Below, piece after piece: positions 52,157 through 61,361 of a DNA stretch of 61,361 nucleotides. The position numbers and the translations under genes were made by a program. The stretch comes from a bacterium. Lineage in GTDB: Bacteria; Patescibacteriota; Minisyncoccia; UBA6257; 2-01-FULL-56-20. The notes beneath the pieces are model-generated. The model was given only the letters and a program-made list of their open reading frames with translations, searched no databases and was not told where the DNA came from. Numbering within the stretch: position 1 is the stretch's first letter; every line of letters starts with the position of its first letter. The DNA is taken from assembly GCA_021780195.1 (NCBI GenBank), contig JAJXZE010000013.1, positions 1-61,361 on the forward strand, read 5' to 3'.

Positions 52157-52279
52157 AATGCGGCATTGTCTCGCTTGGTTCTCACTGGTTCGGGTGACCC
52201 GTCTCGGACTCGAAACAACCAAACGGAAAGCATTGGAAAATATGTATCCCGGTATCCCACGATACTATGCTGATGACTG

Positions 52280-52350
52280 CTGCCGGGCCTGGATTCGAAC
52301 CAAGATAACGACTTCCAGAGAGTCGCGGCCTACCATTAGCCGACCCGGCA
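52280..52350 (-). tRNA. tRNA-Gln (anticodon CUG)
   Basis: Manual fold: acceptor TGCCGGG/CCCGGCA (U1-A72, discriminator G, as in bacterial tRNA-Gln), D arm GGCT-AATGGTA-GGCC, anticodon arm CGACT-CTCTGGA-AGTCG, T arm CTTGG-TTCGAAT-CCAGG. CCA is not encoded. Confidence 0.9.
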
Positions 52351-52351
52351 A

Positions 52352-53029
52352 TCAATACTCGCGAAAATGGAGGAGTTTTCTCAATCGCTCGACCTCCGAC
52401 TTTCTCCTTACGCGTATAGCATTATGACGTATTTCCGGATGAAATTCAAGTTCACGCAAAGCGCGCGCGACGATACCGAGGAGATGTTGATTGAAGTTGC
52501 TGAAGCCGAAGTTATGGGTGCAGGTGGGAAGATGGACGCATAAATATCCTTCGGCCTCGTAGAGGCCCCGCAGGAAGCGGATTGTGTATGCTCGCCGCGC
52601 GCGAATCCATTCCGGCATACGGTACGGGAAGTTCTTTCGGTTTCCGGAGGGTATGCCGAGGCGTTCCGAAATGAATTTTTGGTAAATGCTTATCCGCACC
52701 GCGTTCGAGGCGGCCACCTTGCCGATCATCGGCGTCTTACGAAAGAGCACCTTCGTAATGGCGGCGTAGCGATTGATGAAGTCCATTTTCCGGGCATCGC
52801 CGACAATAATCAGCCGTTCGGTTCTGGGGAATTGCTGAATGTGTCCATCGCCGAGTACCACGCCGATAAATTCGGCGAGCATGCCATTTCGCGGGAAAGA
52901 AGGATATGCAATGACGTGATCACGCCGCCAGGCGGCAAAATTGTCCACTTTTCGCGCCCGCATGGTCGCCGAAGTTTTTGCGACGCTCGGATGGGTTGCC
53001 TTCGTGAGTCCTTTATTCCATGGAATCAT
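52352..53029 (-). CDS. LAGLIDADG-family homing endonuclease (double motif) with an N-terminal NUMOD3-like motif
   Basis: LAEFIGVVLGDGH and FLRGLYEAEGY motifs, with PWNKG at the N-terminus. The TGA stop at 52354-52352 lies 1 nt from tRNA-Gln. Confidence 0.85.
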   Translation of the reverse strand: MIPWNKGLTKATHPSVAKTSATMRARKVDNFAAWRRDHVIAYPSFPRNGMLAEFIGVVLGDGHIQQFPRTERLIIVGDARKMDFINRYAAITKVLFRKTPMIGKVAASNAVRISIYQKFISERLGIPSGNRKNFPYRMPEWIRARRAYTIRFLRGLYEAEGYLCVHLPTCTHNFGFSNFNQHLLGIVARALRELEFHPEIRHNAIRVRRKSEVERLRKLLHFREY

Positions 53030-53072
53030 GGAATAATTGTAGAGCAGTAAGATTAAATTTTTCTAAAGTCAG

Positions 53073-58707: not shown

Positions 58708-59169
58708 ATGGCGAACGAAAAAAACGTGAGCATGGAAGAGGTGCAGAAACTGCGCGCGGAGACGGGCGCGGGCGTGATGGATTGCCGTAAGGCGCTCATC
58801 GAGGCGAACGGCAACTTCGAGAAGGCGAAGGCCGTGATCCGCGAGAAGGGGCTTTCGAAGGTGGAAAAGCGCGCCGATCGCGCGACCGGCGCAGGGCTGG
58901 TTCATTCCTACGTCCATAACGGCCGCATCGGCGTCCTCGTGGAGGTTCGCGCCGAGACCGACTTCGTGGTCCGTTCGGAACCGTTCCAGGAGCTCGCGCA
59001 CGAGCTCGCGATGCACATCGCGGCCGCCGCCCCCGCCAACGTGGAAGAGCTTCTCGCCCAGCCCTACGTGAAGGACGAATCGCGCACGGTGAAGGACGTG
59101 GTGAACGAGGTGATCGCGAAGACCGGCGAGAACGTTTCCGTGAGCCAGTTCGCCCGGATCGAGGCATAG
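58708..59169 (+). CDS. tsf: Elongation factor Ts, minimal 153-aa form
   Basis: UBA-like N-terminus (VQKLRAETGAGVMDCRKALIEANGNFEKA), TDFV motif (RAETDFVVRSEPFQELAHELAMHIAA) and the C-terminal IAKTGENVSVSQFARIE. Confidence 0.9.
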   Translation: MANEKNVSMEEVQKLRAETGAGVMDCRKALIEANGNFEKAKAVIREKGLSKVEKRADRATGAGLVHSYVHNGRIGVLVEVRAETDFVVRSEPFQELAHELAMHIAAAAPANVEELLAQPYVKDESRTVKDVVNEVIAKTGENVSVSQFARIEA

Positions 59170-59184
59170 CGGTATACTTACCTC

Positions 59185-59529
59185 ATGGTAGAGATTATTT
59201 TTACGTGCGCGCTCATGGTATCGCTCGGCGCGATGCTGTATCTTATGGTGCGCGCCCTGCCGCGGATCGCGGAAGAGCCGCCGGCGGAAAAGCGCGGCCT
59301 GCTTGATCGCTGGGCGCACTCCGAGATCCCCGAGAGAGTGGACCGCGCGCTGAACGGATTCCTCCTCAAGTTCCTGCGACGCTTCCGGGTGTTCGTACTG
59401 AAGATCGACAATGCACTTGCGGGCCATCTCCAGCGGGTGAAACCGGAGGATGCGGACAAGAGGCCGGCCATTGATTTTAAGGAGATTGCGGGGCAGGGGA
59501 AAGAAGAGAGAGAGGACGAGAGGAGTTAA
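59185..59529 (+). CDS. Hypothetical membrane-anchored protein (114 aa)
   Basis: N-terminal TM helix and a charged C-terminus. A TATACT box at 59173-59178 lies 6 nt before the ATG. Confidence 0.45.
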   Translation: MVEIIFTCALMVSLGAMLYLMVRALPRIAEEPPAEKRGLLDRWAHSEIPERVDRALNGFLLKFLRRFRVFVLKIDNALAGHLQRVKPEDADKRPAIDFKEIAGQGKEEREDERS

Positions 59530-59564
59530 GATATTTTTAATGATTGCTTTGGTATGCTTGAGGC

Positions 59565-60395
59565 GTGCCAAAACGATGGACGAAAAAGGAGGAGTCATTT
59601 TATCGGACGCAAATCCGCATTTTATATATTAATCAGAATAAGACCATCAGTGAGATTGCTAAGATATTAAATATTGGTGAGTCGAGCGTTGGGAAAAGAC
59701 TGCATCGCCTCGGTATTGAGACCGTACCGACGACGAAGCTTCATTATTGCAATCGGAGGACCGACGTGGTGGTTCCATCCAATCGTTCGAATGACCTGGC
59801 AGAATTTTTCGGCATCATGCTGGGTGATGGCCACCTCACTTCATCGCAGGTCTGCGTGACGCTGGGGACGAAAGAAATATCTTATGCCCGACACGTGGCA
59901 CATCTCTATCAACGCCTCTTCGGGGTTCTTCCCAGAGTGTCGGTTTCACGGAAGGGATATGTTGGGGTGTGCCTCTCATCGGTTATAGCCTCCAAGTGGC
60001 TCTCCTCCGAGGGTTTGGTTTATAACAAAGTTAAGTCTCAGGTTGATGTTCCCGGATGGGTTTTTCGGAGAAAAATATGGATCGCAAGATGCGTGCGTGG
60101 TTTCTTTGACACCGACGGATCGATATATTCACTGAGATTCGGCATCCAATTGTCGTTTACCAACGCTTCGCGGCCGCTTCTCTCTTCTTTACAGAGAGCC
60201 CTGAAGCAATTACTATATAAGGTGTCAGAAATAAGCGGGCCACGGTTTTATATTACAAGGTTTGAAGATATCGAAAGATTCTTCACGGAAATCGGACCTC
60301 AGAATAAAAAACACCTGGAACGCTATCGAGCAATTTTACAATCGAGGAGGAGATTAAGCGCAGGTGACGGAGTGGTCAATCGTAGCGCGCTGTAA
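59565..60395 (+). CDS. LAGLIDADG-family homing endonuclease (double motif) with an N-terminal HTH
   Basis: LAEFFGIMLGDGH and VRGFFDTDGS motifs, with HTH TISEIAKILNIGESSVGKRLHRLGI. GTG start. The ORF has no stop before the tRNA and ends at a TAA inside tRNA-Tyr. Confidence 0.8.
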   Translation: MPKRWTKKEESFYRTQIRILYINQNKTISEIAKILNIGESSVGKRLHRLGIETVPTTKLHYCNRRTDVVVPSNRSNDLAEFFGIMLGDGHLTSSQVCVTLGTKEISYARHVAHLYQRLFGVLPRVSVSRKGYVGVCLSSVIASKWLSSEGLVYNKVKSQVDVPGWVFRRKIWIARCVRGFFDTDGSIYSLRFGIQLSFTNASRPLLSSLQRALKQLLYKVSEISGPRFYITRFEDIERFFTEIGPQNKKHLERYRAILQSRRRLSAGDGVVNRSAL

Positions 60396-60443
60396 ACGCG
60401 CCGCCTTCGGGCTACACAGGTTCGAATCCTGTCCTGCGCACCA
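60358..60443 (+). tRNA. tRNA-Tyr (anticodon GUA), long variable arm, CCA encoded
   Basis: Manual fold: acceptor GCGCAGG/CCTGCGC, D arm ACGG-AGTGGTCAA-TCGT, anticodon arm GCGCG-CTGTAAA-CGCGC, variable arm GCC-TTCG-GGC, T arm ACAGG-TTCGAAT-CCTGT, then A-CCA. Confidence 0.92.
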
Positions 60444-60475
60444 TGGAGGCAAATATATAGTGTGGAGAAAGTTGA

Positions 60476-61195
60476 TCATTTTGTCCGATTAGCAATCGAC
60501 CAGAGAAACCGAACTTCTGCGGCGGGCAATTTCACCACCGTGGGATTTTTGGGAATACGTTGCGATTTGGACGAATATGATTCTAGGGGAAGATCGGATA
60601 TCTTTTTTCGGAATAGTTTCCTGTAAAATAAACTAGCGATAAGATAGATTCCCGTGGAATTTGGATGATGCCCATCGCGTTCAAATAAATTCATATCCGG
60701 TCGCTCTTTCATGGCGAGTGCAAAAGCAGGTTCAGTGGAGATCATTTTAGCATGCAATTTTTTTGCCACCGTCGCATAGAGTGCATTTAATTTTTTTGCG
60801 TCTTTGAGAAGACCGATGCCGATGAATGAAGGAGGGCAGTAGAGAATTGTCTTTGCCCCGATCTTTTTGGCTAGCTTATCGAATCGAGCTGCATATGTAC
60901 TAAACACCTGAGGTCTCCCTACGTGAACGACGCCATCTTTAATGATCCCTCCCAAACGTCCTCGTTCCTGGAGAACAACATAATCCCAATTTCTGCTTTT
61001 GAGTTTTTTAATAGCTGGGCCGTCATCCCAGAGCATTTTGAGTGTGGCACCTCCGCGAAAAACACTATCTACAAAAAGATCACCCGAATTCGATACGTGA
61101 GCGAAATGAGCTATCAGTTTTGGCAGACTATGGTAGTAGCTAAAACTGTTTCCGATAAAAAGGATTGATAGTGGGCCGCCTTTCATTTTTGTCAT
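60476..61195 (-). CDS. SGNH/GDSL-like hydrolase family protein
   Basis: Block I LFIGNSFS and block V DGHHPN. Lies in an A+T-richer segment downstream of tRNA-Tyr. Confidence 0.65.
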   Translation of the reverse strand: MTKMKGGPLSILFIGNSFSYYHSLPKLIAHFAHVSNSGDLFVDSVFRGGATLKMLWDDGPAIKKLKSRNWDYVVLQERGRLGGIIKDGVVHVGRPQVFSTYAARFDKLAKKIGAKTILYCPPSFIGIGLLKDAKKLNALYATVAKKLHAKMISTEPAFALAMKERPDMNLFERDGHHPNSTGIYLIASLFYRKLFRKKISDLPLESYSSKSQRIPKNPTVVKLPAAEVRFLWSIANRTK

Positions 61196-61262
61196 TGTTT
61201 CATTTTAGCACAGAATTTTTCTAGGGGAATTGACGCTTGAATTTGCACTCTGATTGCACAGG

Positions 61263-61361
61263 TCAGCCTTTCTGAAATATCTGTCGGGGATTTTTGAATG
61301 CGAGACGCTTCCGTGGCCGGTCGTTCAATATACGGACGACATGGGTAAGTTCTTCGGAAGT
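61263..61361 (-). mobile_element. IS30-family transposase gene, 3' end only (runs off the window edge)
   Basis: The minus-strand frame reads TSEELTHVVRILNDRPRKRLAFKNPRQIFQKG-stop. L-N-x-R-P-R-K-x-L-x-F-K-x-P is the characteristic C-terminal signature of IS30 transposases. Confidence 0.6.

Follow-up and report, generated by a model that had tools for sequence, protein, structure and literature searches.

The present analysis concerns a gene for a probable LAGLIDADG homing endonuclease that runs into a tRNA-Tyr gene in a stretch of DNA of 61,361 nucleotides (nt) from a member of the Patescibacteriota (contig JAJXZE010000013.1 of assembly GCA_021780195.1), which is referred to below as the window. 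The open reading frame (ORF) occupies positions 59565..60395 of the plus strand and encodes a protein of 276 amino acids (aa), beginning with a GTG at 59565 that is aligned with residue 1 of its homologs (MARRWT..EE) and ending on a TAA inside the tRNA. The tRNA-Tyr(GTA) gene (60358..60443, plus strand) is called functional and includes an encoded CCA; its prediction, for which an earlier note on this DNA had recommended confirmation, was corroborated by ARAGORN (60358-60443, including the CCA) and Rfam (60358-60440, 58 bits versus a cut-off of 29), which agree on its identity and on 60358 as its 5' end. The overlap of ORF and tRNA, 38 nt on the plus strand (60358..60395), encodes the protein tail SAGDGVVNRSAL (residues 265-276). 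Direct reading of the sequence confirmed the claim of the same note that the ORF lacks a stop codon of its own and ends on a TAA overlapping the anticodon: its first in-frame stop is the TAA at 60393-95, corresponding to U35-A36-A37 of the tRNA, with the anticodon at 60392-94, and at the junction the other two frames are closed by TAA (60355-57) and TGA (60365-67). In the frame used by the window copy this stop is unavoidable, since U35-A36-A37 of any tRNA-Tyr reads UAA there. If RNase P cuts at 60358, a non-stop message would logically follow.

The encoded protein combines a DNA-binding domain with two LAGLIDADG motifs. Pfam recognized LAGLIDADG_3 (8e-13), WhiA_N (weakly, and over the first half), and a helix-turn-helix (HTH) domain resembling region 4 of sigma-70 (Sigma70_r4_2, E = 3.6e-4). 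This N-terminal three-helix domain spans residues 7-48 (59583..59708, plus strand), with helices at 7-23, 28-35, and 39-48 in the AlphaFold model. The first LAGLIDADG helix (59790..59831, plus strand; residues 76-87 in the model) ends in the invariant G87-D88-G89 (LAEFFGIMLGDGH), as determined in an alignment of 43 sequences, and the second (60072..60122, plus strand), which was detected by Pfam, alignment, and model, carries the invariant G179-F-F-D182-T-D184 and S186, as well as a nearly invariant G185. Each of the two helices thus ends in a conserved acidic residue, and D88 (LGDG) and D184 (FFDTDG) are invariant throughout the 43 sequences at approximately 50% identity; the window protein retains all 45 invariant residues of the alignment. 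The model has a predicted local distance difference test score (pLDDT) of 91, with only residues 269-276 of the tail below 50 and predicted to be disordered. A sequence search of the PDB returned nothing significant (best E = 0.17), so a fold search was needed. Foldseek ranked the TliVMA intein endonuclease domain, I-Tsp061I, WhiA, I-AniI, and I-DmoI among the top matches, and also I-SceI, with a probability of 1.0 for TliVMA, I-Tsp061I, I-AniI, I-DmoI, and I-SceI; in model and fold search the protein displays the tandem alpha-beta-beta-alpha-beta-beta-alpha fold. Taken with the cassette proposed below, to which the same confidence applies, the model makes it probable that the gene encodes a free-standing, monomeric, double-motif LAGLIDADG homing endonuclease with an N-terminal HTH domain.

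Several other element classes were considered for this gene and rejected. An intron- or intein-borne endonuclease does not fit, as Rfam finds only two tRNAs in the window, the tRNA-Tyr is uninterrupted, and the ORF does not lie in frame within a host protein; by the same Rfam result a group I intron or other known RNA element was discarded. An integrase-type element targeting tRNA genes was rejected because the interval from tsf to the tRNA contains no integrase gene, and because the duplicated part (described below) is the 5' end of the tRNA and not its 3' end. Membership of the class of WhiA-type domesticated regulators was rejected on account of the position of the HTH domain, which is N-terminal and not C-terminal, and of the retention of D88 and D184.

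At E <= 1e-5 the database contains 589 relatives of the window protein, which measure 254-301 aa, are approximately 50-58% identical, and, where a source name is available, are almost all labelled Patescibacteria or candidate phyla radiation (CPR). The family is large, belongs to the Patescibacteria (CPR), and is apparently undescribed. A genome scan with one genome per species returned 80 loci, designated by L-numbers (81 with the window), of which the 78 from other species whose contig continues past the gene were evaluable, giving 79 with the window. In all 78, and in the window (79/79), the endonuclease gene directly adjoins a co-oriented tRNA-Tyr(GTA) gene, an association far beyond chance. 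The positions of the stop codons were counted from the conserved C-terminal motif N..H..R, which was mis-detected at L024 and L056; positions derived from tblastn were unreliable at L008, L017, L029, L049, and L062. This motif ends 11-41 nt upstream of the first nucleotide of the tRNA, in all three phases, and the ORF enters the tRNA at 65 of the 79 loci (82%), again with use of all three frames. In 27 of the 79 the stop is U35-A36-A37, as in the window; others lie at tRNA positions 4, 8, 9, 13, 14, 16, 20, 24, 29, 30, 36, 52, 59, and elsewhere, adding up with 35 to more than 15 positions. The remaining 14 loci were counted as having an upstream stop, 13 of which end 1-11 nt before the tRNA and one of which (L056) is the motif mis-detection mentioned above. 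The C-terminal tails vary in length and sequence with the frame and the type of tRNA: several homologs end in ...EV(A/V)KRDAL, the window protein in ...GVVNRSAL, and its closest relative, P0003 (the protein of L210), in ...GIEVAKRDAL, with frame and anticodon TAA identical to those of the window.

Upstream of the endonuclease gene the family carries a displaced fragment of the tRNA itself. This stump corresponds to positions 8-27 of a canonical tRNA-Tyr, comprising its D-arm, and has the sequence AGAGTGGTCAATTGCAA, which was found with at least 12 of 17 matches at approximately 55 of the 81 loci and with at least 13 of 17 at 47; the chance of the latter in a stretch of 120 nt is approximately 1e-3 per locus by a binomial estimate. 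In most loci the element lies 28-30 nt 5' of the ATG. Over the 47 loci positions 8-27 are mostly 66-100% conserved, with two columns at 47% and 56%, and the acceptor positions 1-7 have decayed (32-40%). The match is perfect over 27 of 27 positions in L018 (GCGTCGGTGGCAGAGCGGTCAATTGCA) and over 25 of 25 in L068. Where the acceptor strand of the stump has been kept (L018, L026, L076), it is unlike the acceptor of the functional tRNA of the same locus, an indication that the import extended beyond the D-arm. At the level of the family, a displaced target fragment thus stands beside the element together with a complete copy of the tRNA, while the window retains only an eroded remnant. The earlier note had described the gene as fused to the 5' end of a tRNA; the junction is real, but the gene is more accurately placed between a 5' stump and a complete, variant tRNA-Tyr.

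The stump also appears to have acquired a function. Its last six bases, TTGCAA, constitute a -35 box, followed by 17 AT-rich nt and a TATAAT-like -10 box, so that the family consensus reads AGAGTGGTCAATTGCAA, 17 nt, TATAAT, 6 nt, ATG, and the modal distance from the end of the stump to the ATG is 29 nt (17 + 6 + 6). A -10 box with at least 5 of 6 matches is present at 54 of the 81 loci, in 38 of which it lies 6-7 nt 5' of the ATG. As judged from sequence, this arrangement would be a sigma-70 promoter with optimal spacing, from which an essentially leaderless message is expected. Some stumps are of non-canonical type. The perfect 25-nt stump of L068 is of the 'ACTCAAGCGGTCAACGA' type, which is the type of the functional endonuclease-linked tRNAs of L013, L020, and L039, and the functional tRNA of L068 itself is of yet another type; a weaker non-canonical pattern, with approximately 16 of 20 matches, was seen in L073 and L079. 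The stumps of these three loci suggest successive invasions, in an arms race between the specificity of the enzyme and the D-arm of tRNA-Tyr.

Alleles without the insert were sought in metagenomes with the pattern AGAGYGGTCAATTGCA-N5-CTGTAAA, in which the sequence of the stump runs straight into the anticodon stem. At least 120 stretches matched this canonical D-arm pattern. According to ARAGORN nearly all of the matches listed are intact tRNA-Tyr genes, the few exceptions being cut by a contig end, and none of the matches listed has an endonuclease homolog; many of them belong to the native tRNA-Thr/Tyr/Thr/Trp cluster, which surrounds insert-bearing loci too. Conversely, the canonical D-arm was found in none of the 79 functional tRNAs linked to an endonuclease gene, which display a handful of variant D-arms instead, and which score 51-58 bits with Rfam versus 58-64 bits for canonical tRNAs, one odd type not being reported. 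Two compensatory base-pair swaps in the D-stem distinguish the D-arm of the window, GACGGAGTGGTCAATCGTA (60366-60384), from the canonical GGCAGAGTGGTCAATTGCA. We infer that the altered D-arm of the linked tRNA removes the target and would confer resistance to cleavage. A very unusual G/C-rich D-arm, for example AGACCCGTAGGGGGCGGGG, occurs in the linked tRNA-Tyr of L012, L018, L033, L053, and L061; these tRNAs were called by ARAGORN, and that of L012 was not reported by Rfam at the gathering threshold. The well tags H41, H43, and H51 are common to the sample names of endonuclease-bearing genomes (L011, L019, L048, L068, L071, L077) and of insert-free contigs labelled 'Hain' (L108, L113, L117, L120, L150), and donors and potential recipients may therefore coexist.

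Presence and absence of the insert at one precise site could also be followed between orthologous loci of relatives of the window (L209-L212), which were found through EF-Ts; the comparison of orthologous tsf/tRNA-Tyr loci proposed in the earlier note was thereby carried out, and the insert is present in some and absent from others. The relatives share the gene order scpB, S11 peptidase, mraY-like gene, rpsB, tsf, and a conserved ORF for a small membrane protein downstream of tsf, which in the window encodes 114 aa (59185..59529, plus strand). In the insert-free L209 and L211 the tRNA-Tyr starts 7 and 3 nt, respectively, after the stop of the small ORF, whereas in L210, L212, and the window the two are separated by the endonuclease gene. 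A gap of 3-7 nt leaves no room for a promoter of the tRNA's own, which must natively be co-transcribed with rpsB-tsf. The eroded left junction common to L210, L212, and the window reads TTTTTAAT.ATTGC.T..TATGCTTGA.GC, followed by the start codon. In the window its sequence is GATATTTTTAATGATTGCTTTGGTATGCTTGAGGC (59530..59564, plus strand): ATTGC at 59543-47 remains of the D-stem of the stump, and TATGCT at 59553-58, 6 nt 5' of the start codon, resembles a -10 box. Since these two elements are only a few nt apart, approximately 14 nt of the spacer are gone and the hybrid promoter is probably dead. A promoter scan found nothing at the left junction of the window, and over 59100-60600 it returned a single weak promoter-like site (60188-60216), in no excess over shuffled sequences (1 versus a mean of 1.2); no terminator was found after the tRNA-Tyr in this region. 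From the eroded stump and promoter and the GTG start, the window copy is read as an old insertion. It sits 35 nt behind the operon of tsf and the small ORF, and the endonuclease gene and the tRNA are probably transcribed from this operon.

With respect to base composition, the endonuclease gene lies approximately 7 guanine-plus-cytosine (GC) points below its flanks in 78 of the 80 loci, and in the window has a GC content of 0.46 versus 0.57-0.59. A recent horizontal origin from a single source was considered and found unsupported, as the GC content of the gene follows that of the host. On the 3' side of the tRNA-Tyr, the region 60444-61361 has a GC content of 0.43 versus 0.57-0.59 in the rest of the window, and contains a minus-strand ORF of 239 aa (60476-61195) with a weak match to DUF4886; it may be foreign DNA integrated beside the tRNA.

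These observations can be brought together in a model that we consider probable, in which the endonuclease gene is part of a homing cassette inserted in tRNA-Tyr near position 26/27 that regenerates a cleavage-resistant tRNA-Tyr, the family being specific for this tRNA. The enzyme would cut an intact canonical tRNA-Tyr gene, the predicted substrate being GCGTCGGTGGCAGAGTGGTCAATTGCA-N5-CTGTAAA, near position 26/27, at a target that is roughly GGTCAATTGCA/NNNNN/CTGTAAA. Repair of the break would copy the cassette, homology arms being provided by the stump on one side and the 3' portion of the tRNA on the other. The 5' part of the recipient's own tRNA would stay behind as the stump and supply the -35 box; the -10 box and the ORF would arrive with the cassette, together with either a new 5' part or an entire tRNA as a replacement. 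The imported part or tRNA would restore the essential tRNA without the target, in what would amount to a natural home-and-rescue arrangement. The consensus order in the family is stump, -35 box TTGCAA, 17-nt spacer, -10 box, 6 nt, ATG, and ORF, followed with no spacer by a complete variant tRNA-Tyr. The ORF would run flush into the tRNA because tight packing keeps the nuclease and the resistant tRNA inseparable. The borrowed stop is then probably a family-wide by-product of the layout of the cassette and not a defect: every tRNA-Tyr has a stop in each frame by approximately position 36, and an ORF flush against the rescue tRNA will usually end at the stop that the tRNA happens to contain in the frame concerned.

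The window contains a second endonuclease gene beside a tRNA. A LAGLIDADG ORF of 225 aa from a different family, 24% identical to the Tyr-linked protein, lies on the minus strand at 52352..53029, and its TGA stop ends 1 nt before tRNA-Gln(CTG) (52279..52350, minus strand; ARAGORN, Rfam). The claim of the earlier note that the window holds two separate endonuclease/tRNA junctions thus holds, one with a 38-nt overlap at tRNA-Tyr and one with a 1-nt gap at tRNA-Gln. The Gln-linked family has 350 relatives in the database, and its gene precedes tRNA-Gln(CTG) at five of the five loci inspected, i.e., the window and four sampled homologs (L201-L208), in which the two are separated by 1, 14, or 15 nt or overlap by 10 nt. 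Upstream of the copy in the window no tRNA-Gln stump was detectable (score 5, below shuffled sequences). In this upstream region (53030-53072, minus strand) a TACAAT box stands 6 nt before the ATG, a -10-to-start geometry identical to that of the Tyr family, which suggests that the message of the Gln-linked gene may be leaderless as well. A third, distant HTH/LAGLIDADG-like family of approximately 200 aa, with the motif GLGLGLYWGEG, abuts tRNA-Thr(GGT) in L148, L121, and L084. In L148, as oriented, the ORF (2014-2610) ends on its stop, followed after 1 nt by the tRNA-Thr (2612-2685); in L121 the TAG of the ORF lies inside GTAGCTCAG of a tRNA-Thr-like 5' half. The tRNA-Thr-like 5' halves of L121 and L084 continue into non-tRNA sequence after the GGT anticodon, for which either an intron or an additional insertion could account; no group I intron was detected by Rfam at the Thr-linked loci.

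A broader proposal, which we advance only tentatively, is that CPR bacteria carry an undescribed class of home-and-rescue LAGLIDADG cassettes, each dedicated to one tRNA gene (Tyr, Gln, or Thr-GGT). Such cassettes might disrupt the essential tRNA gene, substitute a linked, resistant copy that they transcribe themselves, use the stump as a promoter, and produce a leaderless and stop-less message through the position of the transcription start site and processing by RNase P; successive waves might chase D-arm variants of tRNA-Tyr and thereby drive the unusual diversity of the tRNA-Tyr D-arm in CPR bacteria.

Several points weigh against the cassette model and its extension. In the lineage of the window, the tRNA of the endonuclease-free L211 is nearly identical to the variant tRNA of the window, so that here, barring a secondary loss of the gene from L211, the linked tRNA has the appearance of a native host tRNA. 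Moreover, the window copy, with a GTG start and neither a recognisable stump nor a recognisable promoter, may no longer be mobile. Across the family the GC content of the gene tracks that of the host (r = 0.85, slope 0.83) and members are approximately 50% identical, which argues for long residence and largely vertical descent rather than frequent transfer. Selection on the stump could be explained by promoter function, by autoregulation, or by homing. The end of the similarity between stump and tRNA varies, being located after position 26/27 in most loci and at approximately 23-24 in L026, L076, and L077, and it is from this end that the putative insertion point and target site are read. As far as the sequences show, either of the two 5' copies of the tRNA may be the resident one and the other the imported one, and cleavage and homing are themselves deduced from sequence features. 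Finally, in the Gln-linked family the stump is weak, being seen at two of five loci and borderline relative to shuffle controls (L205/L207, L208), and that of L208 matches the tRNA of its own locus.

Among the alternatives, the one that retains most probability, although we consider it unlikely, is that the missing stop is a selected regulatory device, as had been envisaged in the earlier note. Cleavage by RNase P would leave most family members with a non-stop message, output would be limited to the unprocessed precursor, and later products would be tagged by tmRNA and degraded; such a device would be compatible with the cassette model. It would account for the lack of a stop before the tRNA at the 65 loci and for a spacer that never exceeds approximately 11 nt, and the leaderless consensus mRNA, trimmed to little beyond the ORF, is reminiscent of the tRNA punctuation of mitochondria. 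Selection for a stop-less message is, however, difficult to reconcile with the 14 of 79 copies that were counted as having a stop of their own, with the use of all three frames and the scatter of stops over more than 15 tRNA positions, and with tails that are unconserved and, in the last eight residues of the window protein, predicted to be disordered. Tight packing is moreover normal in these genomes, as in the endonuclease-free relatives an ordinary host ORF likewise stops 3-7 nt short of this tRNA. An incomplete T or TA stop completed after processing, as in mitochondria, was looked for in the junction sequences and rejected, as no such conserved pattern exists.

Less likely still is a domesticated, vertically inherited LAGLIDADG/HTH factor that, like WhiA or intron maturases, regulates or assists the tRNA-Tyr operon and uses the stump as its operator. 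WhiA is among the structural neighbours of the window protein, with which it shares a double LAGLIDADG fold and an HTH domain, and the strict synteny in 79 species, the integrity of all sampled ORFs, and the amelioration of the GC content of the gene towards that of the host (r = 0.85) would speak for this reading. The retention of stump positions 8-27 alongside a decayed acceptor part implies selection on the stump, and I-TevI, a homing endonuclease that acts as an autorepressor, provides a precedent. WhiA, however, is not linked to tRNA, has its HTH domain at the C-terminus, and has lost the catalytic acidic residues, whereas the present family has an N-terminal HTH domain and two invariant catalytic aspartates, D88 and D184, which point to an active nuclease rather than to a regulator of the WhiA type. 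Nor would a regulator require that the linked tRNA always be a D-arm variant (0/79 canonical), or fit readily with a patchy distribution that includes clean empty sites (L209, L211) and at least 120 canonical alleles without the gene, or with a stump that consists of the target tRNA's own 5' part (L018, 27/27). A pseudogene or assembly artefact, in which a point mutation or frameshift removed the ORF's own stop, has next to no probability and is excluded by the tails and frames of the homologs: a TAA in another frame (60355-57) does abut the tRNA, and the GTG start and eroded promoter might suggest decay, but homologs do not consistently end on stops of their own, as the earlier note had allowed they might, read-through being found in 65 of 79 independent assemblies, the nearest homolog (P0003/L210) shares both the frame and the anticodon stop, and all 45 invariant residues are kept.

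The closest analogues of the proposed homing cassette appear to be mitochondrial endonuclease genes that bring with them a substitute for one end of the host gene, SegB of phage T4, and intron-borne endonucleases of tRNA genes. Free-standing mitochondrial homing endonuclease genes of the first kind, such as the insertion in atp6 of Allomyces macrogynus, likewise insert in an essential gene without an intron or intein, restore its function with a substitute segment, and leave the original behind as a fragment; the present case differs in its bacterial tRNA target, in the replacement of the 5' end or the whole of the tRNA, in the reuse of the fragment as a -35 box, and in its CPR hosts. Endonucleases encoded by group I introns are also known from bacterial tRNA genes, e.g., I-Ssp6803I in cyanobacterial tRNA-fMet. 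This enzyme shares with the present family a bacterial tRNA gene as its target, but belongs to another enzyme family, and the tRNA, interrupted in its anticodon loop by the intron, is restored by a ribozyme; no intron was detected by Rfam in the window. Engineered home-and-rescue or cleave-and-rescue drives, which are synthetic Cas9 systems in insects, offer a functional analogy only, in that a nuclease directed against an essential gene is linked to a recoded, resistant rescue copy. SegB is a free-standing GIY-YIG endonuclease encoded in a tRNA gene cluster of phage T4 (PMC2330249); it resembles the present system as a free-standing gene beside tRNAs that spreads by co-conversion of flanking tRNA DNA from a donor made resistant by sequence differences, and differs in enzyme family, in its phage host, in its location between genes, and in having neither a tRNA stump nor an ORF/tRNA overlap. 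Within CPR bacteria, LAGLIDADG endonucleases are encoded in insertion sequences and introns of rRNA genes (PMC11270868; also mentioned in PMC11809585 and PMC7143001). The former study does not mention tRNA at all, and in the literature searched CPR LAGLIDADG genes were described only in rRNA insertions, which is absence of evidence within that search. The rRNA elements share the host group, the enzyme superfamily, and a highly conserved structural-RNA target with the present family; however, they interrupt the rRNA and need to be removed (PMC11270868), whereas here the tRNA is uninterrupted and would be regenerated by duplication, with no splicing involved.

For annotation, the findings imply that the overlap of the ORF with the tRNA should neither be 'corrected' nor be flagged as evidence of a pseudogene. 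If the model is true, it would represent a third route, besides introns and inteins, by which a homing endonuclease can occupy an essential conserved gene without killing its host: the element would duplicate and re-code part of an RNA gene, and the RNase P of the host would release the product. It would explain the 'hypothetical' or 'WhiA-like' genes that are joined to tRNA-Tyr and tRNA-Gln in hundreds of CPR genomes, as well as the odd and variable C-termini that gene callers assign to them and the diverse D-arms of tRNA-Tyr in CPR bacteria. The family would also provide new meganuclease scaffolds whose target, of approximately 22 bp, is predictable, and a parallel in nature to synthetic home-and-rescue gene drives.

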